Source: Gemmatimonadota bacterium
GTDB taxonomy: Bacteria > 4572-55 > J002
DNA length: 44,729 bases
NCBI GenBank assembly: GCA_003697105.1
Contig: RFFQ01000114.1
Coordinates: forward strand, 1-44,729
Direction: 5' to 3'
A model generated the notes under the pieces. It saw only the letters and a program-made list of their open reading frames with translations. It was not told the origin of the DNA and made no database searches. The translations under genes were made by a program, and so were the position numbers. Positions 3,408 through 30,695 of the stretch are shown here, piece by piece; position 1 is the stretch's first letter, and each line of letters opens with the position of its first letter.

Positions 3408-3413
3408 TCGAAC

Positions 3414-5183: not shown

Positions 5184-5199
5184 TTTTAGGAGAGACTTA

Positions 5200-7548: not shown

Positions 7549-7556
7549 GATGAAAC

Positions 7557-8072
7557 ATGCGTATTCCAAACAGATGGCAACGCTTTATTACAATCTGGGT
7601 TATTATCGCCTTTATGTCTCCATCATTTGTGATGGCACAACCGGCGTCGGATTTAGGACTCGCCGGAAAAAACCCACTGGTGAATTACTCTTTTGCACGC
7701 CCCGGTGATCTGACGATCTATGTCAATATTTGGGGGGCGATTGCGGCGCCCGGGCGGTATGAAGTCCCCACAAATACCACGTTGCTGGATTTACTCTCCT
7801 TGACCGGTGGACCAAAACCCGGCGTTAAAATGAATAAAATCCGCATTATTCGCATTGTGGAAACCAATCCAGAAGTAAGGCGGGTTGAATTTACGGTGAA
7901 TCTGGAAGATATAACCAAAATCAAGGATCGAGATATCGAACTTTATCCGGGAGATACCATAATTTTGGAAGAAACCTCTTGGCAACGTACTCGCCAAGTC
8001 ATTAGTTCGATCTCCACGGTGGTTTTATTTGCAACTGCCATCATTAACTTGATAAATCTTTCTAATAAATAA
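7557..8072 (+). CDS. Short SLBB-domain protein (minimal Wza/OPX-like export protein)
   Basis: Signal peptide, SLBB motif VNIWGAIAAPGRYEVP..TLLDLLSLTGG, LYPGDTIIL, and a C-terminal hydrophobic helix; located directly after wzc. Confidence 0.7.
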   Translation: MRIPNRWQRFITIWVIIAFMSPSFVMAQPASDLGLAGKNPLVNYSFARPGDLTIYVNIWGAIAAPGRYEVPTNTTLLDLLSLTGGPKPGVKMNKIRIIRIVETNPEVRRVEFTVNLEDITKIKDRDIELYPGDTIILEETSWQRTRQVISSISTVVLFATAIINLINLSNK

Positions 8073-8117
8073 TAACGACACCCGTGAACATTGGTTTCAG
8101 ATAGTAGGTTCTGATCC

Positions 8118-10037: not shown

Positions 10038-10780
10038 CCCCGCAGACACCACCTGTATTTTAGAAATTGGTAGATGAAATAAGTGTTTATCACCGCATAA
10101 CGCTTGAATTTCTTAGGGTCTTGAATTGAGCGATATAGCCATTCAAGACCATTTTTTGTCCACTTTGGTGCCGCTTTTTTCAATCCAGCAACGACCTCAA
10201 AACTGCCACCAACCCCCAGACAAACCGGTACCTGTAATCTGTTGAGATGCCGGTATATCCACAATTCTTGTTTGGGGGAGCCAAGAGCAACAAATAGGAT
10301 ATCCGGTTGTGTCGCGTTAATCTCTTGAATAATCCGGGGAGTTTCCGCCACTGTAAAGTAGCCATCATGCCACCCAGTGGCGTTTAGGTGCGGATAATCC
10401 TGCCGGCAACGCTTCTGCAACTTCTGAAGTACTGCCGGTGTACTCCCTAAAAAATAAAACCGGTAGTCCTGTTGATGACTACCGGCGAGCAATGCTTCCA
10501 TTAGGGTAATTCCGCCTAAATCCTTTTCTTTTAAAGGCTGACCTAACCATTTACAGCCAAAATAAACCGCATTTTCCGGGATAATCCCGCCCGAATGATG
10601 AATCGCTTCCGCAAGTTCGGGAAGGCGATCCATCAAATACATTTTGTTGGCATTGAGTACCGAAATTTGGGTAGGTTTTCTCTGCCGGACCCATCGATCA
10701 ACTTGATCCAGCCATTCGGCTAACGTCAAATCATCTAGCGGGTAGTGTAAAAATTGGCGGCGGTACTCAAGATTAAGCAT
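10034..10780 (-). CDS. wecG: WecG/TagA/CpsF family glycosyltransferase (GT26)
   Basis: FYFLGS, GWHDGYF, PDILFVALGSPKQE, LGVGGSFEV and GLEWLYR motifs. Confidence 0.85.
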   Translation of the reverse strand: MLNLEYRRQFLHYPLDDLTLAEWLDQVDRWVRQRKPTQISVLNANKMYLMDRLPELAEAIHHSGGIIPENAVYFGCKWLGQPLKEKDLGGITLMEALLAGSHQQDYRFYFLGSTPAVLQKLQKRCRQDYPHLNATGWHDGYFTVAETPRIIQEINATQPDILFVALGSPKQELWIYRHLNRLQVPVCLGVGGSFEVVAGLKKAAPKWTKNGLEWLYRSIQDPKKFKRYAVINTYFIYQFLKYRWCLRG

Positions 10781-11870
10781 GATACACGTGATTAATGACC
10801 TTCACAATGCGTTCGGCGGTATGTCCATCCCACAAGGGTGGTATTTGACCTGTTTTGGTGTTCCCTGCTAAAATTTCCTGTACGGCGGCGACAATCGCTC
10901 CCGTCTCCAGCGGAATCAATTGGTTCGTACCCAATGTGATCGTTACCGGACGCTCTGTATTCTCCCGTAAGGTTAAGCAGGGGATGCTCAACGCGGTGGT
11001 TTCCTCCTGAATTCCCCCGGAATCTGTTATGACCACCATCGCGTGTTGCATCGCATTCAGAAAATCCAGATAACCTAACGGCGGTAATAAGCGGAAGTTG
11101 GTAAGGGATTCAATTTGGTTCTGAAACCCAAAATCAATAAGCCGTTGCCGGGTACGAGGATGTACCGGAAAAATTACGGGTAACTGGGGGTCTAATTCCG
11201 AAAACGCGCTCAAGATGGTTTGAAGTGCCGCTTTATCATCCACGTTACTGGGGCGGTGCAGCGTGACGAGAGCATATTCCCAAGGGGAAAGCCCCAGATC
11301 GGTTAAAATCGAGGATTGTCGCGCTTTTTCTTGGTAAAACCGTAAAGAATCGATCATCACATTGCCCACAAAATGGACCTTTTCCGCTGCAATACCTTCT
11401 TGTTTTAGATGATCGAGGCCGCTTTGTTCCGTGACGAACAGTATATCCGAGAGTGCATCCGTGACAATCCGGTTGATTTCCTCCGGCATCCGGCGATCCC
11501 CACTGCGTAGCCCCGCCTCTACATGAATTACCGGTACATGGAGTTTTGTCGCGGTCAACGCACAAGCCACCGTTGAATTAACATCGCCAACGACCAGAAC
11601 GGCATCCGGTTGGTATTGCAGCAAAATATCTTCAAACGCGACCATAATCGCGGCGGTCTGTTTGGCGTGAGACCCCGAACCCACCCCCAAATATACCTCC
11701 GGTTGGGGGAGTTCGAGATCATCAAAAAAAATCTTGGACATCTTTTCATCATAATGCTGCCCAGTATGGACGAGTACCGGCTCTAGCTGGGGATACTGTC
11801 CCATCGCCCGCTGAATCGGGGCAACCTTCATAAAATTCGGGCGTGCCCCCACAACGTTCATAATTCTCAT
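10773..11870 (-). CDS. wecB: Non-hydrolysing UDP-N-acetylhexosamine 2-epimerase (WecB/WbpI family)
   Basis: VVGARPNFMK, VHTGQHYD, HVEAGLRS, MPEEINR, TDSGGIQEE and LRENTERP. I prefer the ATG at 11870 to the TTG at 11882. Confidence 0.9.
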   Translation of the reverse strand: MRIMNVVGARPNFMKVAPIQRAMGQYPQLEPVLVHTGQHYDEKMSKIFFDDLELPQPEVYLGVGSGSHAKQTAAIMVAFEDILLQYQPDAVLVVGDVNSTVACALTATKLHVPVIHVEAGLRSGDRRMPEEINRIVTDALSDILFVTEQSGLDHLKQEGIAAEKVHFVGNVMIDSLRFYQEKARQSSILTDLGLSPWEYALVTLHRPSNVDDKAALQTILSAFSELDPQLPVIFPVHPRTRQRLIDFGFQNQIESLTNFRLLPPLGYLDFLNAMQHAMVVITDSGGIQEETTALSIPCLTLRENTERPVTITLGTNQLIPLETGAIVAAVQEILAGNTKTGQIPPLWDGHTAERIVKVINHVYHA

Positions 11871-11899
11871 AATACGGTTCAACTTTCGACTATAAAAAT

Positions 11900-13198
11900 T
11901 TAGAGGAGTATCACATTGTCGCTACTGATCATCTTTTGGGTCGCATTACGGGTATCCAGAATAACGGTTGACTTTTCCATGATATACTCGTAGTCAAAAC
12001 AACTATGATTGGTGGTGATGACCACACAATCTGCGGATTCTAGCACCGGATCGGTTAATTCCACTTGTGCCATGCGTAAGCCGTGATCATCAAATTGGGG
12101 TAAATAGGGGTCATGATACAAGACATTTGCTCCCAATTCTTGCAAAAATTTGATGATTGGAATGGCTGGTGACTCTCGAATATCAGCCACATCTTTTTTG
12201 TAGGCAACACCTAACAACAAAATGGTTGATCCTTTAATGGACTTCGCGCGATCATTCAAAATGCGCCCAATTTTTTCCACCACATAGCGGGGCATAGAAT
12301 CATTCACTTCGCCCGCCAGCTCAATAAAGCGGGTGTATAAGCCATATTCTTTTGCTTTCCATGAAAGATAAAATGGATCCAGCGGGATACAGTGCCCGCC
12401 TAAACCCGGACCCGGATAAAACGGCATATAGCCAAATGGCTTGGTGGAAGCAGCGCTGATGACTTCCCAAACACTGATTTTCATCTCGTTGCACAATTGA
12501 GTCAACTCATTAACCAGTGCAATATTGACATTACGGAAGGTGTTCTCAAAAACTTTGCACATTTCCGCTACTTTGGGGGATGTTACCGGAAATACATTTT
12601 GTACCGAATTTGTGTAAAACACCACGGCTAATTCCGTACATTTGGGAGTCACGCCACCGATGACTTTCGGAATATTTTCGGTTTTATGCGTTTTATTGCC
12701 CGGGTCAACTCGTTCCGGTGAAAACACCAGAAAAATATCTTCGCCGATCTTCAGTCCGGATTTTTCAAGCTCGGGCTTGAGCAACTCTTCGGTAGTGCCC
12801 GGATACGTTGTGCTTTCCAAGATAATCAATTGATCCGGTTTTAGGTGTTGGGTGGTATCGCGCACCGCACTTTCGATATAACGCATTTCCGGAGTTTTGT
12901 TTGCCGTGAGGGGTGTCGGAACACAAATAATGATAACATCGCATTTCCGAATCACGGAAAAGTCGGTTGTGGCGGAAATCATACCGTTTTCAATAAAGGG
13001 GGAAAGTTCCTCGGAAGAAACATCATTAATATAACTTTTACCACGGTTAATTTCTTCAACTCGCTCCTGCCACGGGTCAATCCCGATTACGGTATAGCCT
13101 GCTTTTGCTTTTGTTACCGCTAGGGGTAAGCCCACGTATCCCAAGCCGAGTACCGCCACCACCGCGGACCGGTCTTTAAGTTTATCATAGAGTGCCAT
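11900..13198 (-). CDS. wbpA: UDP-N-acetyl-D-glucosamine 6-dehydrogenase (WbpA-like)
   Basis: GLGYVGLP, ICVPTP, LESTTYPGTT, FSPERVDPGN, ENTFRNVNIAL, catalytic GGHCIPLDP and GVAYKKDVADIRESP. Confidence 0.9.
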   Translation of the reverse strand: MALYDKLKDRSAVVAVLGLGYVGLPLAVTKAKAGYTVIGIDPWQERVEEINRGKSYINDVSSEELSPFIENGMISATTDFSVIRKCDVIIICVPTPLTANKTPEMRYIESAVRDTTQHLKPDQLIILESTTYPGTTEELLKPELEKSGLKIGEDIFLVFSPERVDPGNKTHKTENIPKVIGGVTPKCTELAVVFYTNSVQNVFPVTSPKVAEMCKVFENTFRNVNIALVNELTQLCNEMKISVWEVISAASTKPFGYMPFYPGPGLGGHCIPLDPFYLSWKAKEYGLYTRFIELAGEVNDSMPRYVVEKIGRILNDRAKSIKGSTILLLGVAYKKDVADIRESPAIPIIKFLQELGANVLYHDPYLPQFDDHGLRMAQVELTDPVLESADCVVITTNHSCFDYEYIMEKSTVILDTRNATQKMISSDNVILL

Positions 13199-13209
13199 AA
13201 ATCCATCCT

Positions 13210-14379
13210 CTAGGAAGTATTAAATGGGTTTAAGTAATATGCCAGTGCATAAAACATCCATGCCTGACTCCAACGAATATAAGGAATTTTATTTGTAAAC
13301 CATTTGGTTTTCTGAAAGTAAAAATACCCCCGCTGGGGGTCTTGCATTTGATCGACCGTCCATTCCAACAGATGTCGGCAAAAGCGTTCAACGTCGAAGT
13401 CACAATATTGTCGCAAGGTGATGAACGTCATGACTGCCTGCGCCGGACAATGCACGTCAATCGGATAAAGTTGGTTATGATAATATGTTGGGGTGTAATC
13501 GTCTAGGAAAAAATGTGTCCGGTAATAACGGAGTCCCTTTAAAAGTGCCGCTTCTCCCGAAAAATCTTGTGCGGCGCTCTGATACGCATGCAGGCACTCC
13601 AAATTATAACCGGTATGGAAGCTATCAATCCATTGTTGATAGGCTAACGGGCTGTAAAACCACGATCCGTCCGGATTTTGATGATCCAGACAAAATCGTA
13701 CTGCTTTTTGAGCGGTCTCGATCAATTCGGAGTCTTGCGTGTGGCAATAAACTCGGCTGAGTAGCCGCACTCCTAACAGCGAGGCATTGAAGACCTGCGA
13801 TTGATCCCGCGGTGAGTACGAAAAACAGAAGGAATCCTCTGTTCCGGTTCGATTCAGATCACGTAAGATAAATTCGCAAGCTCTCCGTGCCAGCGTCAAA
13901 TAAGAGTCCTCACCTAAAATTTTATATGCCAGCAGAAACGCATCACCGACGAAGGATGTCACCACGATATTGGGGGTGTATTTTGGCTGATAAAATGCCC
14001 GTGCTTGCCAGTCAAAATTGTAGCCCCATCCGGCTCCGCACCACCCCATACTTTGACACCGGTGCAACTCGGCGATAAATCGTAGTGATAGTTGCCGGTA
14101 GGTCTCATCCTGAGTGGCTTGATAGCAGTTCAAACAACCGGATAAAAAGAGGGCTAATCCTTTAGGATTATCACCCGTTGGCACCCCCAAAAGGGGTCTT
14201 AAGTTGATCGGGCTTCGCTTCAAAAGTTGAATCCAAGCGAGCCGAATTATCCGGCTGTGGCGAAAGGGGGTCGCCTGAAAAAGCCGGCTGTTTAAGCCAT
14301 CATAGCAATCCCAGCCCTTAAAATCGACCGTGATTAGGTATTGAAAAAGCCGCTCAAATGCCGTTTGGAGTTTGTTCAC
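13210..14379 (-). CDS. Uncharacterised alpha/alpha-barrel protein with QW (prenyltransferase/terpene-cyclase-type) motif; barrel C
   Basis: Mostly helical with HQNPDGSWFY and MQDPQRGYFYF. It is a clear paralogue of 18814..20025 (shared WIDxFHTGYNLxCL, FCFxYxP, PIDxxCxxQA). Confidence 0.6.
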   Translation of the reverse strand: MNKLQTAFERLFQYLITVDFKGWDCYDGLNSRLFQATPFRHSRIIRLAWIQLLKRSPINLRPLLGVPTGDNPKGLALFLSGCLNCYQATQDETYRQLSLRFIAELHRCQSMGWCGAGWGYNFDWQARAFYQPKYTPNIVVTSFVGDAFLLAYKILGEDSYLTLARRACEFILRDLNRTGTEDSFCFSYSPRDQSQVFNASLLGVRLLSRVYCHTQDSELIETAQKAVRFCLDHQNPDGSWFYSPLAYQQWIDSFHTGYNLECLHAYQSAAQDFSGEAALLKGLRYYRTHFFLDDYTPTYYHNQLYPIDVHCPAQAVMTFITLRQYCDFDVERFCRHLLEWTVDQMQDPQRGYFYFQKTKWFTNKIPYIRWSQAWMFYALAYYLNPFNTS

Positions 14380-15464
14380 GGTATCCCTCTCAATTCGGTG
14401 AAGTGGCTAAAATCAGTCCGACCCGACCAGACATATAATAACCAGCCTAAATGATACGAACAGCACTCTGGATGAATGACCCGTTGGGAGGGTGATACAA
14501 GCACATCTTCCGTGCCGCGTATGGTGTGACCCAAGGCACGCACCAATCGCACCGGACGTTGCCACCGCGCTTGTCGCCGGAGTGACCGGTGAATGAAAAA
14601 GGGTTGGGTTTGGATCATCGGGTAGCCCTTAAACCAGTCAAGACTCTTCTGAATTGCCGCTTCTGCACCGGATACGTTCCAATCCTGTGCCGGCAATAGA
14701 AAAAGCAACGCCATCGCATCCTGATGAACACTGTAGATCGGATACCAATCCATGACTTTTGCGGTATAGGCATTGAAGAACCATGCCCATTCCCCCCCAA
14801 CCCCTTGCCGGGCAATCACCCGGTGCATTGCCTGACAACATACGGATCGCACCGGATCATCATCAAATTGGCACGCAAAATGGGCTAATGCGGCTAAAAA
14901 ATAGGCAATTCCGCCAAAGGAAATAAATCCCCCCCGAAATCCCCGGTGATGAAACGGAAAGAACGTTTGTGGATGCATAAACTGGGTAATCAACATCTCG
15001 ATGAGTTCCCGTGCACGTTGATATACCAGCGCCTTACCGGTTTTGACCGCATACGTTGTTGTCCCCCAAGCCGCCCAACTAAGGTCTTGGATGGTGTATT
15101 TCCAGTTGTGCTCTTGATTTCCGAGCCGTTGGAAAAGCCAATCAAACAGGACTGCCGCCTGATCATGTTCTGCTGTTGCTAGTATATGCAGTAACAAACC
15201 TCGATTTGCCACATTTTGATCTCGTTCCAGATGCCGTGCCAAATAGGCTTCGATCAATGTGGATATATCCCACGGGAGTGAATCCCGTGCCGCTACCTGC
15301 TGCAAACCGGCAAGTACATTGATGGTATAGCGATATACCTTCGGATACTGAACCGTGTGTTGGTACTGGTCGCCAACCAACCGGGTTGAGGAGGCAAACA
15401 GATATGTCTGATCATCAAACATGTGGGTTAATAACTCCAACGATTTTTGAATCAGAGGCTTCAT
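14376..15464 (-). CDS. Uncharacterised divergent alpha/alpha-barrel protein; barrel B
   Basis: 362 aa ORF translationally coupled to the next gene (4-bp overlap). It is helical, with the QW-like RQGVGGEWAW plus YPIYSVHQDAM and ECCSYHLGWLLY. Confidence 0.5.
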   Translation of the reverse strand: MKPLIQKSLELLTHMFDDQTYLFASSTRLVGDQYQHTVQYPKVYRYTINVLAGLQQVAARDSLPWDISTLIEAYLARHLERDQNVANRGLLLHILATAEHDQAAVLFDWLFQRLGNQEHNWKYTIQDLSWAAWGTTTYAVKTGKALVYQRARELIEMLITQFMHPQTFFPFHHRGFRGGFISFGGIAYFLAALAHFACQFDDDPVRSVCCQAMHRVIARQGVGGEWAWFFNAYTAKVMDWYPIYSVHQDAMALLFLLPAQDWNVSGAEAAIQKSLDWFKGYPMIQTQPFFIHRSLRRQARWQRPVRLVRALGHTIRGTEDVLVSPSQRVIHPECCSYHLGWLLYVWSGRTDFSHFTELRGIP

Positions 15465-15576
15465 CGGGGGGGACTTTTCGAGGATAGGGTGATATGTAGA
15501 TGAAGAATATGTACCGGCTCTTGAGTACTAGCCGCCGGTAATTCCCCTAAAATAACGTATGTTACACCAATACCTT

Positions 15577-15593
15577 TGCCAAAACGTTGCCAA
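15577..15593 (-). promoter_or_regulatory. Possible sigma54 (-24/-12) promoter
   Basis: The minus strand reads TTGGCAACGTTTTGGCA, with exact GG-N10-GC spacing. It lies in the only large gap (176 bp) of the minus operon. The -12 element is TGGC rather than TTGC. Confidence 0.3.
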
Positions 15594-15640
15594 CGCTTTG
15601 AAATCAATGAGGTAAATCCGTAAAAGCGCGGATACTTATT

Positions 15641-16510
15641 TTACACGGTGTAAATCGTGATCCCTTTTTGGGCATTTTGAATCATGTGATGAAACAACCT
15701 TGCCGCATCTGCCCGAAAAAATGCCATTCCATACCGCTCTATATCCTGACAAATCGTATCGGGAACATGCAATGCCATGTAACGCCGCACGTTGTGATTC
15801 ATTTTGTGCATATTGTGGGCATAGGTTTCTACCCAATGGTCTTGACCCGCCGCATCGATACACTTCACCCGAAACCGGCGTTCATGGTAGGGTTGTACCG
15901 GAAAGTCTGCTTTAAGGGCATCATCGACCGTGTGGACAAATGCCAATCGATTTGTGGAAACACCTACACCAATGATCCGTGCCTGATACGTTACCAACTG
16001 GTAGTACGGACTACATCGATCATACGGGTAGGGTGAATGATGGTGGGTGGCGGTGAGGGCTTCCGCGAGGGGTCCCAGCGCACAAACTGATTTTGCCGGG
16101 TGCAAACTGCGCTTTGCGCCGCGTTGTCGCCGGGCAAATTCAGTCAAAATACCGCTGTACGAGGGGCTTTTCCGGACATCAAACACCGGTTGGGTCAACA
16201 AATGTTTGTAGGAGTCCAATTCCGGGTACGTGGGGAATACAAGCGTGCCTTCTACCCCGACGGCTTCCCGCAACAGTACCAACATGTGGAAAAATGGGAA
16301 ATCCAGATGTAGATGATCCACGGAACTGTGAACAAACAGCACTTCACCCGGTTGTACCTGTAAATCATCCTGTAAAATCTGCCGAAACCGGCTTTTGTTG
16401 AGTGGTGGCAACGCCTTGACCCGTCGTTGTAATTGCCGGTATCGTATCTGTTTTAAGCGGAGTTGCCACCCGCGTGGCAAAACTTCCTTGACGACTTCTG
16501 TAACTCTCAC
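15641..16510 (-). CDS. AAC(3)/YokD (Antibiotic_NAT) family N-acyltransferase
   Basis: LFVHSS, GTLVFPTY, SGILTEFAR, RSLHPAKSVCALG, SPY and FVHTVD motifs. A GTG at 16510 overlaps the upstream TGA (GTGA); the track start at 16561 is probably too long. Confidence 0.8.
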   Translation of the reverse strand: MRVTEVVKEVLPRGWQLRLKQIRYRQLQRRVKALPPLNKSRFRQILQDDLQVQPGEVLFVHSSVDHLHLDFPFFHMLVLLREAVGVEGTLVFPTYPELDSYKHLLTQPVFDVRKSPSYSGILTEFARRQRGAKRSLHPAKSVCALGPLAEALTATHHHSPYPYDRCSPYYQLVTYQARIIGVGVSTNRLAFVHTVDDALKADFPVQPYHERRFRVKCIDAAGQDHWVETYAHNMHKMNHNVRRYMALHVPDTICQDIERYGMAFFRADAARLFHHMIQNAQKGITIYTV

Positions 16511-17856
16511 ACGTGCCTCGTCTTCTTGAAATGGCGGTATTCGGGTTCTGTATCGATCCATTTAATTTTGACCGGAACGTGATGTGGCGGTAAATGTTCC
16601 CGGCAGTGCCGCTTGATGTGCCGGATAAACGCAGGCGGGTCGAGAGGGCGTGCCGCTTGGATGGCGGCACAAACCACGTTCCCCAGTAGTGGATTTTTCT
16701 CCCCGTAAACCGTCACCTCATGCACGCCGTCAATCTCCTGAATCACACGTTCCACCGCCGCCGGATAGACCTTTTCCCCACCCACATTGATGACCTCCGA
16801 GTTTCGTCCTAAAATTTTGAGGTAATCTCCGTGTACTTCAACCCGGTCTCCGGTGATAAACCAGCCATCTGCGGTAAAGGGACTTGGTGCGTTAAGATAG
16901 CCCAACATCGAAGACACCGCCTTAATTTGCAAGATGCCGTTCACCACACGCGTCTGGAACTCTGCCCCGCCCAATTTAACCCAGAGCGAATCTGACCGCT
17001 CCGATTTGGAGCGCAACGTACCGGTTTCGGTAGTACCGTATTTTTGGAGTAGTGTCACGTGCGGAAACCGTGCCGCACACCGTTTTAGGGTACTTTCCGG
17101 CATGACCTCCGCCCCATAGGTGATGTACTTCAAGGATGATAAATCATGGTGTTCATCTGCCCGGCTGAGAAGCAACAGGTTCAAAAAGGTGGGGGAAACC
17201 GGTAATACCTCCACCTGATGCCGCTCAATTGCCCGGCAGATGGTCTGGGGTGACCGGTCTGGTATAGTGACCAGACAACTGCCGTTAGAAAGGGCATAAA
17301 ACAGTGTATCCATCCCGCCAATATGGTCTAGCGGCATAAACGCCAACGTTCGCAGATTGTACCGGCGGGCCCGGTATTTTTCCAGTAAAGTGGTGGCATC
17401 ATGCACCACCGCTTTGCGTTCTCCTGTTGTGCCGGAGGAAAACAGCACCACGCCCGGATGTTGGCGTTTCCACAACTGCCGGTAGAGTGGGTGATCCGGG
17501 CGGTACGGTAGCGGTTGGTAGTGCATGTGATCCGCGCCATCAATCTGAATCCCATATTCCACTTGTGCGGTACGAAACGTCTCGGCGCGTTGCCCGGCAG
17601 CGGGTTGACTCAACATGACTACGATGCACTGTTGAACCAGCAGTGCCAGCAGGGTTGCCACGGACTGCGGCGAAAGGTCTGCCTTCAACGCCACAACACT
17701 GCCGGCAGTTATGTTTCGGTTTTGCAAATCGTTTTGAACGGCGGAACGCCGGCTTAGTAGGTCTTGATACAAAAAGGCACGATCCTGCCAGATCAGCGCT
17801 TCTGCCGTGCTGGCGCCCCGAAAGCGGTTAAAGAGTATCTCAAGGATATCCGTCAC
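16507..17856 (-). CDS. AMP-binding (ANL superfamily) acyl-CoA/acyl-ACP ligase
   Basis: P-loop FSSGTTGERK, YGTTETG, WFITGD, GRNSEVINVGGEKVYP and a C-terminal FKK. Confidence 0.88.
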   Translation of the reverse strand: MTDILEILFNRFRGASTAEALIWQDRAFLYQDLLSRRSAVQNDLQNRNITAGSVVALKADLSPQSVATLLALLVQQCIVVMLSQPAAGQRAETFRTAQVEYGIQIDGADHMHYQPLPYRPDHPLYRQLWKRQHPGVVLFSSGTTGERKAVVHDATTLLEKYRARRYNLRTLAFMPLDHIGGMDTLFYALSNGSCLVTIPDRSPQTICRAIERHQVEVLPVSPTFLNLLLLSRADEHHDLSSLKYITYGAEVMPESTLKRCAARFPHVTLLQKYGTTETGTLRSKSERSDSLWVKLGGAEFQTRVVNGILQIKAVSSMLGYLNAPSPFTADGWFITGDRVEVHGDYLKILGRNSEVINVGGEKVYPAAVERVIQEIDGVHEVTVYGEKNPLLGNVVCAAIQAARPLDPPAFIRHIKRHCREHLPPHHVPVKIKWIDTEPEYRHFKKTRHV

Positions 17857-17859
17857 GAT

Positions 17860-18555
17860 TCAAACCCCTCCCAGATAGAGAATCTGCCCAGTGACAAAGT
17901 CACTTTCCGGACGGATGAAAAAATCGATCACATTGGAAATGTCCCGAAACTCACCGAACCGGTGAATCGCTTGTCGTGCCAGAAGTGCCTGAACTTTCGC
18001 CGGTGGTACGGCACGGATCAGGTCGGTTTGTACCGGTGTGGGACCGATAGCATTGACCGTGATTCCAAATTCGGCAAGTTCCCGTGCTAGGATTCCGGTC
18101 AGGGAGACGACCGCCGCTTTGGAAGCGGCATAAATCGCTTCTCCTTCTAATTTCAAGGGTGTGGCAACCGTCGCAAAATTGACAATCCGGCCATATTGAG
18201 TGCGTTTCATCAGTTTGGCGGCTTCCCGGCAACACAAAAATGTACCGGTGACGTTTGTGTTCAGGATGTGATTAACCGTTTTTACCGGTGTTAGCAACAG
18301 GTGATTCATGGTGGCTATACCCGCATTATTGATCAGGATATCCAATTTGCCGTAGGTCTGGCGAATGGTGGCAAACATCTGTTTCACCGCCATTTCATCG
18401 GTGATGTCCAATTCAAAATGTTGGTAATTCGGGTGGTTTTGGTCAACGGCAGAGCGGCTGCAACCGATTACGGTGAGATTTTGCGCCAGATAATATTCTG
18501 CCAGATACCGTCCGATGCCTTTACGTGTGCCGGTGATGAGCATCACCTGATTCAT
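17860..18555 (-). CDS. SDR oxidoreductase, FabG (3-oxoacyl-ACP reductase)-like
   Basis: TGTRKGIG, LINNAG, catalytic YAASK, GITVNAIGP and FVTGQILYLGG. Confidence 0.88.
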   Translation of the reverse strand: MNQVMLITGTRKGIGRYLAEYYLAQNLTVIGCSRSAVDQNHPNYQHFELDITDEMAVKQMFATIRQTYGKLDILINNAGIATMNHLLLTPVKTVNHILNTNVTGTFLCCREAAKLMKRTQYGRIVNFATVATPLKLEGEAIYAASKAAVVSLTGILARELAEFGITVNAIGPTPVQTDLIRAVPPAKVQALLARQAIHRFGEFRDISNVIDFFIRPESDFVTGQILYLGGV

Positions 18556-18857
18556 GCCGTCTCCTCGTCCAGAATGCGTGCAATATAATCCGCCAGCGCG
18601 CCGGTGGTTTCAAACGGATTGTGGCGTTGTGCCATTGCTCGCTCATCCGCGAGGGAAATTGCCCGCCCGAATGTATCCTCGGCGTACTGTTCCACCAATA
18701 TGATAAAATTCACCAAACCCATCGAATCCAAGTGTGCCTGACTCCCGCCAAATAGGGGTGTATGGGGTGATTTTGCCAAATGCTGGGAGGTTGGTAAGAG
18801 CGTATTGAATTCATCAATCGCCCGGTAAATGGTATGTAGGATGGTCTCCTGTGTCAT
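18552..18857 (-). CDS. Acyl carrier protein (101 aa)
   Basis: MTQETILHTI.. with the phosphopantetheine motif LDSMGLV. The ATG at 18857 follows GAAAGG. The gene overlaps barrel A by 44 nt and the SDR by 4 nt. Confidence 0.82.
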   Translation of the reverse strand: MTQETILHTIYRAIDEFNTLLPTSQHLAKSPHTPLFGGSQAHLDSMGLVNFIILVEQYAEDTFGRAISLADERAMAQRHNPFETTGALADYIARILDEETA

Positions 18858-20025
18858 GATTGGCCTTTCGGGTGTAATAGAGCAGGCTACCCAGTGCGGA
18901 GAGCATTGTTGCCTGCCCCCAGTGGATAGATTCCAGATTATTGACCCACCATCTACCACGCCGGAAGCGAAACGCACCGTTTTTCTTTTGCATCCGGCGG
19001 ATCGTCCACGTCGCCACCTTCCGGGCGAGGACAAGTGAGGAAGGGTCACGGGTGCTGTATTTTGCCAGTGATTCAATGGCTTGTGAGGCACATTGAATAT
19101 CAATGGGGGCTGTCCGGTTGTGATAATATCTCGGTGCGCCATCCTCCCGAAAAAAGTGATCGACCCAAAATTGATATGTTTTTTCGATAATGGGCGTGGG
19201 GATAAGGGTCTCTCCGGCGAGATGGTGGGCGGCAATCAGGCAGTCCAAATTGTAACCGGTGTGAAAATTATCAATCCAGTGATAGTGTGGGTCTGCGCCG
19301 TAATACCAACTGCCATCTTTGTTTTGATGGGCGCATGTCCACCGGATGGCTTCTGCCGCGAGATCAAAATAGCGGGTGTTGTGGGTCAATGCCCATGCCC
19401 GTAAAAGGGTTACGGCACCCAACAGGTTGGCATTGTGAATTCGGTTCAGAATGCCGGGCGCATAGGCAAAACAGAAACCGTTTTTGTCTGGTTGCCGTTC
19501 TAAATTTTCGTAAATAAACTGTGCCGCCTGTAGGGTTACCGCATGGTACTCCGGTTGCTGAAGTTCTTCTGCCGCCAGATGAAAGGCTTCTGCAATATGC
19601 GCGGTCCAGACGATGGTTGGCAGACCCTGGGGGAAGAACCCACCCCGGCTGGCAAAATCAAAGGCGTTGCCCCACGACATCCCGCTGTAATTCCGGCAAT
19701 AGTGCTGTTGGAGCCATTCTAGGTGATCGTGTACCAGCGGCAGAAATTGCTCCTCTCCGGTGGCTAAAAAATGGTATAAATAGCCTTTGATGATGTAGGC
19801 AAATGCTTTGGAACTTTTCAACTTTTTGACACCGATCCACGGACGAATGTTGACGATCAACCGCCGCCCAACCTGGATCGCTACCCGCTGGAGCCATACA
19901 TTGTGCCTCGTGAGTGCCCGGACCAGTGGTGACCCTAAAATATCATCAAATTCGTAGCCGGCAAAATCATTCTGGAGAAGATACTGGTGCAAGGTCTGGA
20001 AAGATTTCTGAATGGGGCAATCCAT
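18814..20025 (-). CDS. Uncharacterised alpha/alpha-barrel protein with QW motifs; barrel A
   Basis: HQNKDGSWYY, MQKKNGAFRF and WIDNFHTGYNLDCL; paralogue of 13210..14379. Confidence 0.6.
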   Translation of the reverse strand: MDCPIQKSFQTLHQYLLQNDFAGYEFDDILGSPLVRALTRHNVWLQRVAIQVGRRLIVNIRPWIGVKKLKSSKAFAYIIKGYLYHFLATGEEQFLPLVHDHLEWLQQHYCRNYSGMSWGNAFDFASRGGFFPQGLPTIVWTAHIAEAFHLAAEELQQPEYHAVTLQAAQFIYENLERQPDKNGFCFAYAPGILNRIHNANLLGAVTLLRAWALTHNTRYFDLAAEAIRWTCAHQNKDGSWYYGADPHYHWIDNFHTGYNLDCLIAAHHLAGETLIPTPIIEKTYQFWVDHFFREDGAPRYYHNRTAPIDIQCASQAIESLAKYSTRDPSSLVLARKVATWTIRRMQKKNGAFRFRRGRWWVNNLESIHWGQATMLSALGSLLYYTRKANHDTGDHPTYHLPGD

Positions 20026-20040: not shown

Positions 20041-21120
20041 TTAAGACGGATTTCGTAGATCGTGATATATCCGTTCCAACCGCCGGACGACGGTGGGGGC
20101 TAAAAAATGGCGCTGGGCATACTGCCGGTTGTAGCGCCCCATTCTCCGCCGGAGGGTCTCATCGTTGATCAAGCGGGTGATATAGGCGGCAAACACTTCT
20201 GGATCGCGGCTTTCCGTGATAAAACCCATCTTACCATCCTCAAAAAAATCCTTTACGCCGCCATCGGGGCGGGTGATGACCGGCACACCGCAGATCAGGG
20301 CTTCTAGCACCGTCACCGGCATCCCCTCACCATAGTACGTGGGGAAGAGGTACACATCCGCCGCCTGAAACAGCCGGTATTTTTCCGCCACATCCGTAAC
20401 CACGTGGGTGAACGTGACCTGTGGAATCCGGTTTTTCTCCACGTAGTGGCGGGCGGGGTCGTATTCACGACCGCCACCAGCAATGGTTAGGTGGACGTGG
20501 GGATGGGTTTGTTGAACGTGACGCACCGCTTCAATGGCTTCGTAAATCCCTTTTGTTTTTTCGAGCCGGGCTAGAAAGAGGACGTCAAATGTTTCAGAAG
20601 ATTTCGGGACGGAATTACATTGATCCAAAATGTAATCATCGACCAAGGTGGTCTCCTGATAAATTTGCCCAGAATAACCCCATCTGCTTAGGGTGGTTTT
20701 AAAATCTGAACACAATACCGCCAACGCGGTTGCATGGAAAAATATCCGCTTGAACATCCCTAATCGAATGCCATTCATCTGCTGTTCTAGGGAGCGTTGC
20801 CACCCGTGAAAATAAACCAACACTTTGATGCCTTGCCGACGGGCAAACCACGCGAAGCATCCATCCCGCAGCAGCGCTTTGGTATTAAACGAGGTATTGA
20901 TATGAACCAGATCATACGCACCGCTTTTTAGGTGACGCTGAAAGCGAAAGATGTCCCGGATTACGCGAAGAAGGGTTTGCCAAAGCGCGGATTCGCCCTG
21001 CCGTTTGCCGACCTCAAAATAGTCCACCGGTAGCTGGAATTGGTTCTGCAATGCGCGGCAGTAACTCACCACGCCACCGGTTTGGGTCAATTCTGGGGTT
21101 GTCATCAAAATGCGATTCAT
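20041..21120 (-). CDS. Glycosyltransferase family 4
   Basis: GGVVSY, FLARLEKTKG and the EX7E motif EGMPVTVLE. The ATG at 21120 overlaps the upstream stop (ATGA). Confidence 0.88.
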   Translation of the reverse strand: MNRILMTTPELTQTGGVVSYCRALQNQFQLPVDYFEVGKRQGESALWQTLLRVIRDIFRFQRHLKSGAYDLVHINTSFNTKALLRDGCFAWFARRQGIKVLVYFHGWQRSLEQQMNGIRLGMFKRIFFHATALAVLCSDFKTTLSRWGYSGQIYQETTLVDDYILDQCNSVPKSSETFDVLFLARLEKTKGIYEAIEAVRHVQQTHPHVHLTIAGGGREYDPARHYVEKNRIPQVTFTHVVTDVAEKYRLFQAADVYLFPTYYGEGMPVTVLEALICGVPVITRPDGGVKDFFEDGKMGFITESRDPEVFAAYITRLINDETLRRRMGRYNRQYAQRHFLAPTVVRRLERIYHDLRNPS

Positions 21121-22334
21121 GAGCTGCCTGTTTTCAATTGCGTTAGGGTCTGATCGATGGTAACCGCCATCTGTTTGAAGGTACGGTGTGTCTGAATCCA
21201 CTCAAACCCCTTTTGGGCGCATGTGATGCGGCGGTGTTCATCTTCAACCAACAGACAAAGTGCTTCGGTAAATTCCGTCCGGTTGTACGCGGTTAAAATC
21301 CCACCCTGACTGGCTTCCAAAATTTTTTTTTGCTCTTCAATTTCTCGATTTGCCACTACCGGCAGTTTCAGTGCCAGATATTCAATGCACTTTGTGGGGG
21401 TAGCGACACGGAAAAGTTCCGAAGGGGGGATGGGAGATAAGCCAATATCGCAGGTGGTGACGATCTCCGGTACGGTTTCATAAGGGACTTTACCCACAAA
21501 ATGGATGGACTCTGCAGAACGCTTTTGGTAGATGTAGCGTTGTAGCGCCGGAATATCCGTTGGATATTCACCCCAACCCAACAAATACAACTGGACGTGG
21601 GGGTGTTCTAACCAGAGGTGATCAAAACAATCAATGATAAACGGGATGTTCCGCCAAGGTCCCAAACTGCCAACGTAGATGAGCGAGACCTGCTCCCGGT
21701 GGGGTTTGTAATCATGGTTGCGCCCGACAGTTAAAAAGGTTTCGCTGGCGCATTCACCAACGGGTAATAACCGGTGGGTGGGGATGTTCAATTCCTGTTC
21801 CAGCAAGTCACCAAGTGCTTTACTAATGGGAAAGACCCGTGCCGCCTGTTGCAACACGACCCGGTAGCCCCATCCACGAAACCGGTTGTAGATGAGTTTG
21901 AGATAGTGCCGCCAGCCGGTGGAATCCGGGGGTTGTTGGACGTGGCGGTGCATTGGAAAGGTGTACCCGTAGGTGTACGGCTGACCAAATATCCGCTTCA
22001 AAAACAGCGCGATGATGCCCTCCTCTACCCCGTCATGGACGTGAACATGATCGATCCGCTCCCGTAACATCAAATACGTGGCAAAAAATCCCTTCCCGAT
22101 CAGGGTGACTGCCAGATTTGCCATTTGAGTTATGCTGTTTTTCGACGGAAATGCCGGCAGAAGGTAAACCCGGCTGCCGTTCCAATTGTGGATGCGTATT
22201 TTCCACGCCGGTTGTTCCGTTTGCATAATCCAGATCAGTTTATGATCGCGGTTTTGTATTTCGTGATTCCACAACTCGATGAGCATCGGGCGAATGGTGG
22301 GGAATTTCTCTTTAACGAGCATCAAAATGGTCAT
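21117..22334 (-). CDS. Glycosyltransferase family 4
   Basis: GT-B C-terminal motifs LIYVGSL, FVGKVPYE, CDIGLSP and PTKCIEYLALKLPVVA. Confidence 0.82.
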   Translation of the reverse strand: MTILMLVKEKFPTIRPMLIELWNHEIQNRDHKLIWIMQTEQPAWKIRIHNWNGSRVYLLPAFPSKNSITQMANLAVTLIGKGFFATYLMLRERIDHVHVHDGVEEGIIALFLKRIFGQPYTYGYTFPMHRHVQQPPDSTGWRHYLKLIYNRFRGWGYRVVLQQAARVFPISKALGDLLEQELNIPTHRLLPVGECASETFLTVGRNHDYKPHREQVSLIYVGSLGPWRNIPFIIDCFDHLWLEHPHVQLYLLGWGEYPTDIPALQRYIYQKRSAESIHFVGKVPYETVPEIVTTCDIGLSPIPPSELFRVATPTKCIEYLALKLPVVANREIEEQKKILEASQGGILTAYNRTEFTEALCLLVEDEHRRITCAQKGFEWIQTHRTFKQMAVTIDQTLTQLKTGSS

Positions 22335-23248
22335 GATAACGGATGCCTAAGACGGAAAAGCGTTCGGAAAAGTGCCTGTTTGACCTGACGTGCCACCATT
22401 TCCCCGCGTGAGAAGCGGAGCGGTGCTAGATGGGATAGCGGCACGGGCTGGGGATGTTGCAACACCCTGATAATGTCCGAAAACCGGGGGTTTCGATTTT
22501 GTGCCCGCCTGACAAACTCAACCAACGCGCGGTCATGAATATCTGGGTAGTAAATTTGTTGGTGCGCCATCTGGGCGGGGTGCGTGTGTTGTGTTAGCTC
22601 GACTTTTGCGGTTTCATAGGTCGCCGTTTGGGGCGCGTACAGATGAATTTTGGCAGACGTGTTACCAAAAAGCGTATGGTGTGTTTTTTCCCAGTAGCGG
22701 TGTTTCCCCTCAAAATAGGGAATATCAAGTTGGTGGCAAAGCTGGGCAAATCGGGTGGAATCGTGGATTAATTCCCGGTATGAGATGGAAATCCAGTGGT
22801 CTATGCTGGTGAAATACGACCGGTGATAGTTGATCCAGTGTTTTTCCCACAGGGCTAACCGGTTTCGTTTTTGGAATGACGCGGCAGAGTCGAGCGGTGT
22901 TTTCCAGATCAACACGTGCTGAACATCCATATTCTGATGTTGCAACCGGACGGTTTGCTCGTGAATCCACGTTGAATTTTTACTGGAATCGACGATGAAA
23001 TTGACCTCTGGAAAGTGGGAAAACAGGGTGTGATATAACCGGTGTTTTCCGGCACGGCGCACATTCTGCCAGAGCGTGCAGGTGGAATCCCCACAACCGC
23101 AGGAGGGCTGGAGATGATGCGGTCGCCATGGCTGAAATAGTGCCTGTACCTCTCCGCAGGAGAAGCCATGCGGATCATTGGCAAGCATCATATCCAGCAA
23201 AGTAGAACCGCTGTAAGACACGCTCCCAATAAAAATAACTTTTTTCAT
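22331..23248 (-). CDS. Sulfotransferase-family protein
   Basis: N-terminal PAPS-binding-like loop IGSVSYSGSTLL, followed by CGEV, CGCG..C.LW and FIVDSSK. Confidence 0.7.
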   Translation of the reverse strand: MKKVIFIGSVSYSGSTLLDMMLANDPHGFSCGEVQALFQPWRPHHLQPSCGCGDSTCTLWQNVRRAGKHRLYHTLFSHFPEVNFIVDSSKNSTWIHEQTVRLQHQNMDVQHVLIWKTPLDSAASFQKRNRLALWEKHWINYHRSYFTSIDHWISISYRELIHDSTRFAQLCHQLDIPYFEGKHRYWEKTHHTLFGNTSAKIHLYAPQTATYETAKVELTQHTHPAQMAHQQIYYPDIHDRALVEFVRRAQNRNPRFSDIIRVLQHPQPVPLSHLAPLRFSRGEMVARQVKQALFRTLFRLRHPLS

Positions 23249-30456: not shown

Positions 30457-30506
30457 AATCCCTCTATCCGGTAAACACTAAATCCCCTCTCGACAATGGA
30501 TTTTAT

Positions 30507-30666: not shown

Positions 30667-30695
30667 TTGACACGTCTCTCTTTTTATGGTATGGT
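30667..30695 (+). promoter_or_regulatory. Sigma70-type promoter for the SBP-HK-phosphatase operon
   Basis: TTGACA-N17-TATGGT with extended -10 TG. Confidence 0.6.

Follow-up and report, generated by a model that had tools for sequence, protein, structure and literature searches.

Does the run of seven genes transcribed in one direction in a polysaccharide operon of a Gemmatimonadota bacterium encode one pathway, or several activities that happen to be neighbors? The run lies in a window of 44,729 nt (the whole stretch of DNA analyzed). The initial annotation had considered it a single acylation pathway, with an ACP, a ligase, an SDR and an AAC(3)-family protein at its core and three alpha/alpha-barrel proteins (barrels A, B, and C) performing additional steps. 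ORF calls and Pfam matches bear out the gene order barrel A–ACP–SDR–ligase–AAC(3)-like protein–barrel B–barrel C (Table 1). The run is flanked by GT4 genes on one side, as annotated, and by UDP-sugar dehydrogenase, WecB and WecG genes on the other. Identification of the dehydrogenase as WbpA is unsettled, as its score exceeds the cut-off for the general nucleotide-sugar dehydrogenase model only, and is below the cut-offs of the UDP-ManNAc dehydrogenase and TviB models.

Table 1. Coordinates of the seven-gene run and its neighbors in the window.
Feature	Position	Strand	Basis
WecG-family transferase	10034-10780	-	Pfam; TIGR00696 119.4 bits, above cut-off
WecB 2-epimerase	10773-11882	-	Pfam; TIGR00236 322.8 bits, above cut-off
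UDP-sugar 6-dehydrogenase	11900-13198	-	Pfam; TIGR03026 455.9 bits, above cut-off
Barrel C, 389 aa, GTG start	13210-14379	-	ORF call
Barrel B, 362 aa	14376-15464	-	ORF call
Intergenic gap, 176 nt	15465-15640	.	Downstream edge of cassette
Antibiotic_NAT (AAC(3)-fold) protein, 306 aa	15641-16561	-	ORF call, Pfam
AMP-forming (ANL) ligase, 449 aa	16507-17856	-	ORF call, Pfam
FabG-like SDR, 231 aa	17860-18555	-	ORF call, Pfam
ACP-like carrier protein, 101 aa	18552-18857	-	ATG at 18857 inside ORF 18552-19235
Barrel A, 403 aa	18814-20025	-	ORF call
Two GT4 genes	20041-21201; 21117-22334		Pfam

The overlapping or abutting arrangement annotated for these genes is seen at most junctions. By coordinates, barrel A overlaps the ACP gene by 44 nt, while the ACP/SDR and barrel B/barrel C overlaps are 4 nt each; the SDR and ligase genes are separated by 3 nt, and barrel C and the dehydrogenase gene, by 11 nt. 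The ligase and AAC(3)-like genes overlap by 55 nt, or by 4 nt if the latter starts from the GTG codon at 16510, yielding a 289-aa form (P0168). The exception is the junction between the AAC(3)-like gene and barrel B, the sole sizeable gap within the run, around which promoter- and terminator-like sites are no more frequent than in shuffled sequences.

The ACP-like protein has no Pfam or NCBIfam matches, carrier models included. Its profile produces weak matches in PDB (E 0.03–2), mostly to ACPs or D-alanyl carrier proteins, aligned at a serine in an L-D-S-M motif, and this serine is invariant in 26 out of 26 aligned ACP-like homologs encoded beside AAC(3)-like genes. The SDR (Pfam adh_short_C2, 3.5e-46) matches an NCBIfam FabG subfamily with 1.6e-49, yet its 168.6 bits are below the cut-off of 222; the ligase contains AMP-binding (2.4e-37) and AMP-binding_C (1.2e-9) domains. 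Identity to other copies of the cassette is 60–75% for the SDR and 48–58% for the ligase. The best solved relatives of the latter are fatty-acid, 4-chlorobenzoate, MenE, and malonyl-CoA ligases, which offer no clue to its substrate; presumably, it is an acid:ACP ligase. The Antibiotic_NAT protein (1.2e-31) is divergent, and we presume it to be an acyl-ACP:amino-sugar N-acyltransferase. It has 1311 homologs at 47–58% identity, many of them from Acidobacteriota.

In a tblastn survey of 80 metagenome loci centered at AAC(3)-like genes, the ACP-SDR-ligase-AAC(3) cassette was found in the identical order in eight loci on unrelated contigs (L091, L093, L094, L099, L102, L112, L125, and L145), and about 12 further loci contain partial copies cut by contig ends. 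In 38 loci the available sequence extends at least 1400 nt upstream of the AAC(3)-like gene; of these, 28 have a ligase (10) or KAS III (18) gene directly upstream on the same strand, and ten have neither. When the requirement is raised to 2400 nt, 25 loci qualify: seven with ACP-SDR-ligase-AAC(3), 11 with ACP and KAS III-AAC(3), and seven others. The second arrangement is a sister cassette, where a FabH-like KAS III (identified by Pfam in L088, L114, and L129) replaces the SDR and ligase. This comparative evidence supports the annotated grouping of the four cassette proteins into one unit. The recurrence of the unit and the existence of the KAS III form suggest an acyl-ACP donor carrying a short 3-oxo or 3-hydroxyacyl group. 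The earlier argument that the absence of a ketosynthase implies a short acyl group holds in the window, and FabH-type KAS III indicates a short chain in the sister cassette, too. Judging from gene context, the AAC(3)-like enzyme probably uses acyl-ACP, while for the acyl group being a C4 3-hydroxy or 3-oxo acid the chances are somewhat short of even.

To our knowledge, characterized proteins matching Antibiotic_NAT (AAC(3)s and FrbF) all use acetyl-CoA, and the protein considered here could be a plain N-acetyltransferase of this kind, acting on a sugar or conferring aminoglycoside resistance, with the ACP, SDR, and ligase serving another acceptor or another transferase. An example of the latter is the hexapeptide domain of a 541-aa fusion protein (555–2180), whose weak LpxA/LpxD-like matches agree with such a role. 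In addition, no ACP is seen beside more distant Antibiotic_NAT genes adjoining barrel A relatives (6/80 and 2/20 loci of the samples introduced below); these loci, and the ten with neither ligase nor KAS III, mean that the fold alone does not imply an ACP donor. Still, we consider acetyl-CoA an unlikely donor, given the ligase or KAS III immediately upstream in the majority of the subfamily loci, the score far below the cut-offs of all AAC(3) resistance models (e.g., 62.9 bits against 270 for NCBIfam AAC_3), the alignment of the profile to solved AAC(3)s over the N-terminal half only (E about 1e-11), and the polysaccharide operon setting.

The barrels are a different case. AlphaFold2 models of barrels A and B (pLDDT 94.4 and 95.5, respectively) align structurally to (alpha/alpha)6 enzymes over the full length, and barrel C is a paralog of barrel A (34% identity, E 8e-75) retaining its WGxxFD and FHTGYN motifs. 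In agreement with the initial annotation, all three are predicted to be (alpha/alpha)6 barrels, barrel C by its identity to A. Barrel A belongs to a large uncharacterized family, and barrel B, to a second, rarer one, also uncharacterized and unrelated to the first. Barrel B has no Pfam family matches, barrel C weakly matches GH88 (30.1 bits, partial) and C5-epim_C (28.5 bits), and barrel A has weak or partial matches only, with C5-epim_C under the cut-off. Heparan and dermatan C5-epimerases are absent among the structure matches listed for the barrels. No N-terminal hydrophobic segment or signal peptide is present in the barrels, and barrels A and B are cytoplasmic. This is one reason to regard as rather improbable the possibility that the barrels are GH-like or lyase-like six-hairpin enzymes, which would trim, recycle, or proof-read lipid- or nucleotide-linked intermediates, or else act as phosphorylases: polysaccharide-processing hydrolases of such operons are usually exported. 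Moreover, identity to GH families is 6–14%, with no family-level Pfam match across the domain, and the biosynthetic transferases adjacent or fused to the barrels better suit a tailoring step.

These neighbors and fusions were considered in two samples centered at barrel A, one of 80 loci and a diverse one of 20 loci from 16 families. No ACP was found near barrel A relatives in either sample (0/80 and 0/20), and KAS III and the ligase and SDR of the cassette are likewise absent. The barrels are accompanied by genes for WecG, WecB, UDP-sugar dehydrogenase, AsnB-like amidotransferase, and DUF354. Within 8 kb of barrel A in the diverse sample, GT4 is present in 17 loci, AsnB-like protein in 13, DUF354 in nine, an ADH-GFO fusion in eight, and WecG in five. 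UDP-sugar dehydrogenase occurs in 64 of the 80 loci, most of which are acidobacterial and hence interrelated, and in only two of the 20 diverse ones. Barrel B adjoins WecG or WecB in the window, L001/L006, L010, three Rhizobiaceae replicons, and genome G134; no barrel A was found in G134, which is 95% complete, the contig ending 100 nt past barrel B. One barrel A relative carries a fused WecG domain (L203; Pfam Glyco_tran_WecG, 1e-60) and another, GT2 (L077); relatives of barrel B are fused to DUF354 and GT2 (two cases each), a carbamoyltransferase, and a CE4 deacetylase. The barrels thus travel with uronic-acid sugar genes, and not with the ACP cassette.

The co-occurrence of the barrels and the ACP module anticipated in the initial annotation largely fails in the opposite direction as well, as a barrel is present in only three of the 80 AAC(3)-centered loci and missing from 77, leaving the barrels unsupported as steps of an ACP pathway. 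What survives is a link to N-transferases. All nine loci with both barrels A and B have a gene for a small-group N-transferase between or beside them, formyltransferase-like in six and AAC(3)-like in L124, L162, and the window; the order barrel A, formyltransferase-like, barrel B is observed in 6/6 genome loci having barrel B, and in L124 and L162 the AAC(3)-like gene abuts both barrels. Other loci contain barrel A, methyltransferase, and DUF354 (L002, L003, L005, and L007) or barrel A, Antibiotic_NAT, and DUF354 (L214). Barrels A and B may therefore enclose a “decoration slot” of variable content, filled here by the cassette and in relatives by a formyltransferase-like or methyltransferase gene. 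Together with the tight packing and common direction of transcription, the constant presence of formyl- or acyl-type N-transferases, AAC(3)-like ones in L124 and L162 included, could also reflect a single pathway, where all seven genes act together and the barrels modify the ACP-bound acyl group or the newly N-acylated sugar. We find this very unlikely, as, besides the largely mutual absence of barrels and ACP module genes, a methyltransferase may occupy the slot, the barrels are fused to glycosyltransferases rather than to acyl-handling domains, and none of the transferase queries used matched near the rhizobial and G134 barrel B genes, which accompany WecB and WecG.

The same nine loci would fit barrels that expose an acceptor amine for the neighboring N-transferase, e.g., by de-N-acetylation of ManNAc(A). 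This agrees with the fusion of one barrel B relative to a CE4 deacetylase domain, and with aminotransferases not being seen in the scanned stretches of L001, L004, and L010. On the other hand, a DegT gene is found near the barrels of L008 and L011, and the window contains two; relatives whose slot is taken by a methyltransferase and many barrel A loci lacking such a transferase do not fit; and we know of no amidase with a barrel fold. Hence a role in acceptor supply seems quite improbable.

The best overall explanation, to which we assign a probability of about 0.55, is two separable modules acting on a single repeat unit of a Wzx/Wzy-type exopolysaccharide; the two-module architecture as such is highly likely. 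Module 1 (15641–18857) would be a portable N-acylation cassette with its own carrier protein. The ANL ligase would adenylate a short acid and load it onto the dedicated ACP; the FabG-like SDR would set the 3-position, most likely reducing 3-oxoacyl-ACP to 3-hydroxyacyl-ACP, e.g., 3-hydroxybutanoyl; and the AAC(3)-fold enzyme would pass the acyl group from ACP onto an amino sugar, at its free amine. This acceptor would be a nucleotide-linked product of the divergent operon, such as 4-amino-4,6-dideoxy-HexNAc or 3-amino-GlcNAcA. Module 2, barrels A, B, and C, would comprise cytoplasmic tailoring enzymes from two unrelated (alpha/alpha)6 families, working with the WecG-type transferase on a ManNAc(A)-type uronic residue. 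Their likeliest substrate would be an undecaprenyl-diphosphate-linked intermediate prior to flipping, and the likeliest single reaction, C5-epimerization (D-manno to L-gulo), a tentative assignment that we hold with less confidence than the C4 acyl group.

The AAC(3) N-acetyltransferases and FrbF share the Antibiotic_NAT domain with the transferase of module 1, and the chemistry expected is the same, as they N-acylate amines of amino sugars or cyclitols; here, in contrast, the context implies acyl-ACP and a nucleotide sugar instead of acetyl-CoA and an antibiotic. A trio comparable to the ACP, SDR, and ligase is found in a glycan locus of Vibrio cholerae O1, the tetronate genes rfbK-O. Group II flagellar glycosylation islands of Aeromonas carry an ACP, a 3-oxoacyl-ACP reductase, and an AMP-synthetase (orf1-orf3), described as uncharacterized (PMC7874193), and resemble the cassette in having a dedicated ACP, FabG-type reductase, and AMP-ligase in the same order in a sugar-tailoring locus. 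Those loci additionally contain luxE/luxC-type genes, and the passages of the source dealing with them name no AAC(3)-fold transferase (PMC7874193), whereas here the trio is coupled with an Antibiotic_NAT protein, and a sister form with KAS III exists. We found no reconstitution of such ACP trio systems in the literature.

Among the nearest known systems, the AGE superfamily (N-acylglucosamine 2-epimerase, cellobiose and glucose 2-epimerases, mannose isomerase, and YihS) differs from the barrels, with 8–13% identity and no Pfam match to the AGE family; its substrates are free reducing sugars, which are absent from lipid-linked assembly. A closer counterpart makes the earlier statement that the barrels have no described precedent outdated: Agl32 (VNG1058H) from Halobacterium salinarum, assigned to the AglQ family by UniProt, is reported as a D-glucuronyl C5-epimerase of N-glycosylation, a single-domain helical barrel that epimerizes a lipid-linked uronic acid, GlcA (PMC13308652). 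Judged by fold and context, Agl32 appears to be the closest known analog of the barrels, and the two barrel families deserve experimental work. Haloarchaeal replicons do carry barrel A relatives, but with other neighbors, DUF354 on one side and a GT gene on the other. Compared to the single-domain enzyme of Halobacterium acting on GlcA, the window has three barrels from two unrelated families, and the uronic acid would be of the ManNAc(3NAc)A type.

The seven genes are part of a long operon on the minus strand, which runs from 29429 down to 10034 and belongs to an exopolysaccharide locus of the Wzx/Wzy type. The gene order reported in the initial annotation is borne out by ORF coordinates and domain searches: three (alpha/alpha)6-barrel proteins (barrels A, B and C) surround a four-gene cassette encoding an ACP-like protein, a FabG-like SDR, an AMP-forming (ANL) ligase and an AAC(3)-fold protein of the Antibiotic_NAT family. 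Most junctions among these genes overlap or abut; the sole real gap, of 176 nt, separates barrel B from the Antibiotic_NAT gene. Promoter- and terminator-like sites are found at chance level (26 against 25.9 expected, and 23 against 23.3). The G+C content is 0.53-0.54 at 16001-18000, which covers most of the cassette, versus 0.46-0.51 at 13001-16000, where the barrel B and C genes are located; this contrast is compatible with a separate acquisition of the cassette, and is no proof of it.

Features of the polysaccharide locus in the window and related gene sets at other loci
Feature	Coordinates	Strand	Remarks
Wzx-like flippase	27852-29429	-	
Methyltransferase	26979-27839	-	
GT4	25867-26991	-	
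Exported beta-helix protein	24566-25870	-	NosD/Beta_helix and CarboxypepD_reg domains
Polytopic membrane protein	23264-24562	-	432 aa; six hydrophobic segments; without Pfam or NCBIfam family
Weak sulfotransferase-like protein	22331-23248	-	Pfam Sulfotransfer_3, E 1.8e-5, under cut-off
Two GT4 genes	21117-22334; 20041-21201	-	
Barrel A	18814-20025	-	403 aa
ACP-like protein	18552-18857	-	101 aa
FabG-like SDR	17860-18555	-	231 aa
ANL ligase	16507-17856	-	449 aa
Antibiotic_NAT protein	15641-16561	-	306 aa
Barrel B	14376-15464	-	362 aa
Barrel C	13210-14379	-	389 aa
UDP-sugar 6-dehydrogenase	11900-13198	-	
WecB	10773-11882	-	
WecG-family transferase	10034-10780	-	
Divergent operon	555-10037	+	Gfo/Idh/MocA-hexapeptide fusion (WbpB/WbpD-like), two DegT aminotransferases, small PglC-like phosphoglycosyl transferase, Wzc, SLBB protein, PglF-like 4,6-dehydratase
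Flanking regulators	29557-35110; 38845-44727		Response regulator with HATPase_c_2, ABC-type binding protein, histidine kinase, response regulator-SpoIIE phosphatase
Sister cassette, other loci	L088:6639-8930; L114:1505-3800; L129:6430-8930		And 15 further metagenome loci
ADH_zinc_N-Gfo/Idh/MocA fusion, other loci	L001:7768-9927; L002:6513-8657; L005:712-2871; L007:6602-8764		And 8 of 20 diverse barrel A loci

Among the remaining genes of the operon, the polytopic membrane protein is a candidate Wzy polymerase, and the beta-helix protein, whose hydrophobic N-terminus ends in a lipobox-like L-V-S-C, is a candidate lyase or polymer-level epimerase for the same polysaccharide. A Pect-lyase_RHGA_epim protein is encoded close by in L162, a metagenome locus. 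The polymer may be sulfated; at another locus, L011, a Sulfotransfer_1 gene lies about 3 kb away from barrel A. The divergent operon is a likely source of the amine acceptor, and no PglD-type acetyltransferase for a 4-amino sugar is seen in it. From the gene content of both operons, the locus is therefore equipped to make amino sugars and N-acetyl-uronic acids. The flanking regions also encode a protein of more than 1961 aa with Ser/Thr kinase, AAA, TPR, GAF and GGDEF domains, which runs off the window.

The Antibiotic_NAT protein matches PF02522 with 110.5 bits (cut-off 25) over residues 77-284, and solved AAC(3)s align to its N-terminal half only. A role in aminoglycoside resistance was considered and is judged unlikely: the scores are far under the NCBIfam resistance cut-offs (62.9 of 270 for AAC_3, 49.2 of 420 for AAC_3_IV, 43.7 of 480 for AAC_3_II), 28 of 38 related genes have a ligase or a ketoacyl synthase directly upstream, and the setting is a polysaccharide operon. 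The ACP-like protein has no match in Pfam at E<=0.01 or in NCBIfam at E<=0.001. Still, its family has a Ser invariant in 26 of 26 sequences (S45 in alignment A4) within the motif L-(D/E)-S-(L/M/I), and its profile has weak matches to PDB entries (E 0.03-2), most of which are carrier proteins for acyl or D-alanyl groups, with the alignment coinciding at this Ser. The SDR passes the Pfam SDR models, with its best FabG models under their cut-offs (168.6 vs 222 and 163.4 vs 296). The ligase exceeds the cut-offs of both AMP-binding (129.1 bits) and AMP-binding_C (39.4 bits), reaching no NCBIfam equivalog cut-off, and its solved relatives give no pointer to its substrate.

We have analyzed 80 metagenome loci centered on relatives of the Antibiotic_NAT protein (47-58% identity), using tblastn and then iterated profile searches. 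The genes for ACP, SDR, ligase and transferase are found in the same order and orientation in eight of them by tblastn (L091, L093, L094, L099, L102, L112, L125, L145), and about a dozen further contigs carry partial copies ending inside the unit. Where 2400 nt or more are available upstream (25 loci), seven have the complete cassette, eleven have an ACP gene and another gene directly upstream of the transferase, and seven have neither; this other gene is a FabH-type KAS III by Pfam in L088, L114 and L129. This sister cassette comprises an ACP-like protein, the KAS III and an AAC(3)-like protein, with neither SDR nor ligase, and its ACP gene is on the opposite strand in several loci. The sister form is the more common among the sampled loci: among the 38 loci whose upstream stretch reaches 1400 nt or more, the transferase gene is directly preceded by a KAS III in 18, by a ligase in 10, and by neither in 10. 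Among 60 relatives of the window's genome, only two of them from the same class, the transferase has weak, distant matches only. For a 390-aa gene following the transferase in L094, hhalign finds no relation to barrel A or barrel B. Heparinase II/III-like proteins of about 700 aa are encoded beside the cassette or the barrels (L093:2386-4485 and L010:17326-19476), that is, a further toroid-fold family, here in a biosynthetic and not a degradative context.

An acyl-ACP donor for the transferase is supported by comparative genomics. The main argument is that two routes that would load a short acyl group on a dedicated carrier are each welded to one transferase subfamily. The ligase and FabG-type reductase would yield 3-hydroxyacyl-ACP, and the KAS III form, acetoacetyl-ACP; we infer that both forms would converge on a C4 3-oxo or 3-hydroxy acid. 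For Aeromonas flagellar glycosylation islands, a trio of ACP, 3-oxoacyl-ACP reductase and AMP-synthetase genes is described in the same order, with its function unassigned (PMC7874193). We have found no report joining this trio to an AAC(3)-type transferase, none of such a transferase together with an ACP in polysaccharide loci, and no mention of ACP-dependent acylation in the parts searched of a review of E. coli O-antigens.

The barrels have a different distribution. The initial annotation read all seven genes as one acylation pathway and named the barrels' failure to co-occur with the ACP module in other genomes as the result that would speak against it. In 80 genome loci centered on barrel A relatives, mostly from Acidobacteriota and so related rather than independent, profile searches find no ACP or KAS III gene (0/80 each), a distant Antibiotic_NAT gene in six, an ANL ligase in seven (never adjacent), and a UDP-sugar dehydrogenase, mostly directly upstream, in 64. 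A second, more diverse set was composed of 20 loci from 16 families, taken from the 21 positive genomes after two fragmentary G059 matches had been dropped, with neighbors considered within 8 kb. ACP, KAS III, the cassette ligase and the cassette SDR are each absent from all 20, while GT4 is present in 17, an AsnB-like amidotransferase in 13, DUF354 in nine, a methyltransferase in nine, WecG in five and a UDP-sugar dehydrogenase in two. Conversely, only three of the 80 transferase-centered loci (L124, L129, L162) hold a barrel. The one-pathway reading thus fails by its own test, and the barrels are a separate module linked to uronic acids and WecG.

Structure prediction and Foldseek searches, proposed in the initial annotation, confirm the fold of barrels A and B: the AlphaFold2 models, made with family alignments (pLDDT 94.4 and 95.5, respectively), match (alpha/alpha)6 enzymes over their entire length. 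For barrel B, the matches listed after the first one belong to the AGE (N-acylglucosamine 2-epimerase) superfamily, namely glucose-2-epimerase (27.1), cellobiose 2-epimerases (27.0 and 26.0), mannose isomerase (25.7), AGE (24.1) and YihS (24.0), all scoring over GH76 (23.6). Sequence identity to the structure matches is 6-14%, so the fold itself names no reaction; profiles of both proteins yield marginal, repeat-level matches only to PDB sequences. The lack of an N-terminal hydrophobic segment in all three barrels suggests that they are cytoplasmic. The predicted complex of barrels A and B (score 0.00 vs a mark of 0.32) is uninformative.

Barrel C is a paralogue of barrel A (34% identity, E 8e-75). 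A degenerate barrel A copy as the origin of barrel B was considered and rejected, as barrel B has no BLAST similarity to A or C and a conserved family of its own; the profile match of barrel B to A/C has only 49% probability. Residues D123, R127, N198, Y242, D252, H255, Y258 and Q315 are invariant in the barrel A family, as are Y46, Q220, H247, Q248, S336 and Y337 in the barrel B family, where H338 is almost so. The A/C family comprises more than 3425 homologues, the named ones being called "hypothetical", and is present in 21 of 400 other genomes sampled. Some public names in the barrel A family look mistaken: "delta-aminolevulinic acid dehydratase family protein", "antibiotic ABC transporter permease" and [quoted passage not shown]. 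The barrel B family is rarer, with 44 homologues in a word-indexed search, 1202 representative clusters in full HMMER and one of the 400 genomes. ESM Atlas provides automatic names only for the barrels, and no further copies are found in the window's genome.

Neighbors and fusions link both families to glycosyl transfer. Barrel B adjoins WecG and/or WecB in the window, in Kapaibacterium (L001 and L006), in Thermodesulfobacteriota (L010), in three Rhizobiaceae replicons, one of which has the RefSeq order hypothetical protein, WecB/TagA/CpsF-family transferase, WecC, and in genome G134 (barrel B, WecB, WecG, GT4). In G383, one protein combines a barrel A domain with a WecG domain (L203:7992-9929; Pfam Glyco_tran_WecG 1e-60), and in L077:10001-12130 a barrel A domain is fused to GT2. 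Barrel B domains are fused to DUF354 (two cases, in both orders), GT2 (two cases), a carbamoyltransferase and a CE4 deacetylase (proteins P0324, P0357, P0413, P0427, P0360, P0407). DUF354 itself is probably a sugar enzyme of GT-B type, given its weak LpxB-like match and its fusion to WecB in L002. The commonest neighbors of the barrels are AsnB-like amidotransferases, which act on carboxyl groups. Taken together, the neighbors, the fusions and AsnB place both families at glycosyl-transfer steps in uronic-acid-containing polysaccharides. Moreover, a fusion of ADH_zinc_N and Gfo/Idh/MocA domains (about 720 aa) is conserved directly upstream of barrel A relatives, with a second barrel A paralogue inserted between the two in L002, L005 and L007.

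The gene located between the barrels varies. All six genome loci with barrel B have a single gene of 260-290 aa placed after barrel A and before barrel B. This middle gene resembles formyltransferases, with E 5e-13 to 2e-16 for NCBIfam fmt in the three tested and 2e-5 to 4e-11 for Pfam Formyl_trans_N. In the window the entire cassette occupies this place. The AAC(3)-like gene follows barrels A and B in L124 and precedes them in L162; in L002, L003, L005 and L007 barrel A is followed by a methyltransferase, with DUF354 in place of barrel B, and in L214, by an Antibiotic_NAT gene without ACP and then DUF354. Judged by gene order, this may be a decoration slot for methyl, formyl, acetyl or acyl transferases. 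Hence the proposed association of the barrels with the acylation genes holds at the level of the repeat unit, as occupancy of a variable slot, and not at that of the acyl pathway.

As for the reaction, a recently described archaeal enzyme, Agl32 (VNG1058H; UniProt Q9HQQ1) of Halobacterium salinarum, seems to be the best analogue of the barrels. According to two reports, it has 372 aa and a predicted single helical domain, lacks the catalytic residues of GlcE, DSepi1 and AGE enzymes, and converts GlcA to IdoA on a lipid-linked tetrasaccharide prior to flipping; its loss also reduces glycan sulfation (PMC12624080, PMC13308652). Barrels A and B of the window resemble the Agl32/AglQ type in being single (alpha/alpha) barrels of roughly 370 aa, with AGE-superfamily epimerases as the solved folds closest to them. 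This match to the Agl32 description favors C5-epimerization, and by analogy the barrels could tentatively be assigned the conversion of WecG-transferred ManNAc(3NAc)A to an L-gulo aminouronic acid, an assignment we hold to be somewhat less probable than its negation. Against it, the fold fits six-hairpin hydrolases equally well; GlcE-type epimerases and DSepi1 are absent among the Foldseek and VIA matches listed for the barrels; and the signals of Pfam C5-epim_C (PF06662) are marginal, with 19.5 vs 23.3 for barrel A, 28.5 for the whole of barrel C with no single stretch passing, and no match for barrel B, although some barrel relatives carry this label. Barrel A relatives are also present on haloarchaeal and Methanosarcina replicons (35 records, 22-29% identity). 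The Natronorubrum relative is flanked by DUF354 and a glycosyltransferase, no aglB being visible there, and so is not evidently an Agl32 orthologue; no barrel B match is found in this plasmid record. We have found no report of barrels or heparinase-like proteins as epimerases in O-antigen clusters.

Bacterial surface polysaccharides commonly contain non-acetyl N-acyl groups, such as 3-hydroxybutanoyl, as well as L-configured aminouronic acids, and their antigenicity is shaped by both. To our knowledge, the genes installing them are mostly unassigned. The joint reading, to which we give roughly one chance in five, is that the locus combines a carrier-protein-fed AAC(3)-fold branch with two barrel families acting as cytoplasmic C5-epimerases for lipid-linked N-acetyl-uronic acids. 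If so, the AAC(3)-fold branch would take its acyl group from a dedicated carrier and not from CoA, put 3-hydroxyacyl or 3-oxoacyl groups on amino sugars, and be spread through soil bacteria in two forms, one fed by ligase and SDR and the other by KAS III. The barrels would turn ManNAcA-type into L-GulNAcA-type residues jointly with WecG-type transferases, to which some barrel relatives are fused, and their genes would be candidates for the formation of L-gulo and L-ido aminouronic acids where a bacterial polysaccharide lacks an assigned epimerase. The cassette would be a compact, testable N-acylation unit of four (or three) genes. The barrel families are large, called "hypothetical" or misnamed, and repeatedly tied or fused to glycosyltransferases, and a reaction assigned to them would improve the annotation of many bacterial and archaeal polysaccharide loci.

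In comparison with known systems, barrels A and B resemble Agl32 in their size and fold, in the structures nearest to them, in their presumed location in the cytoplasm and in their gene context, and under the joint reading the two unrelated barrel families would be bacterial counterparts of this archaeal enzyme. If the transferase does depend on acyl-ACP, this donor would be added to those used by the AAC(3) fold, which is mainly familiar from antibiotic resistance. As a whole, the locus appears to be a variant of known glycan-tailoring systems, notable for a possible acyl-ACP-dependent AAC(3)-fold branch and for two large barrel families without an assigned reaction that lend themselves to direct tests.
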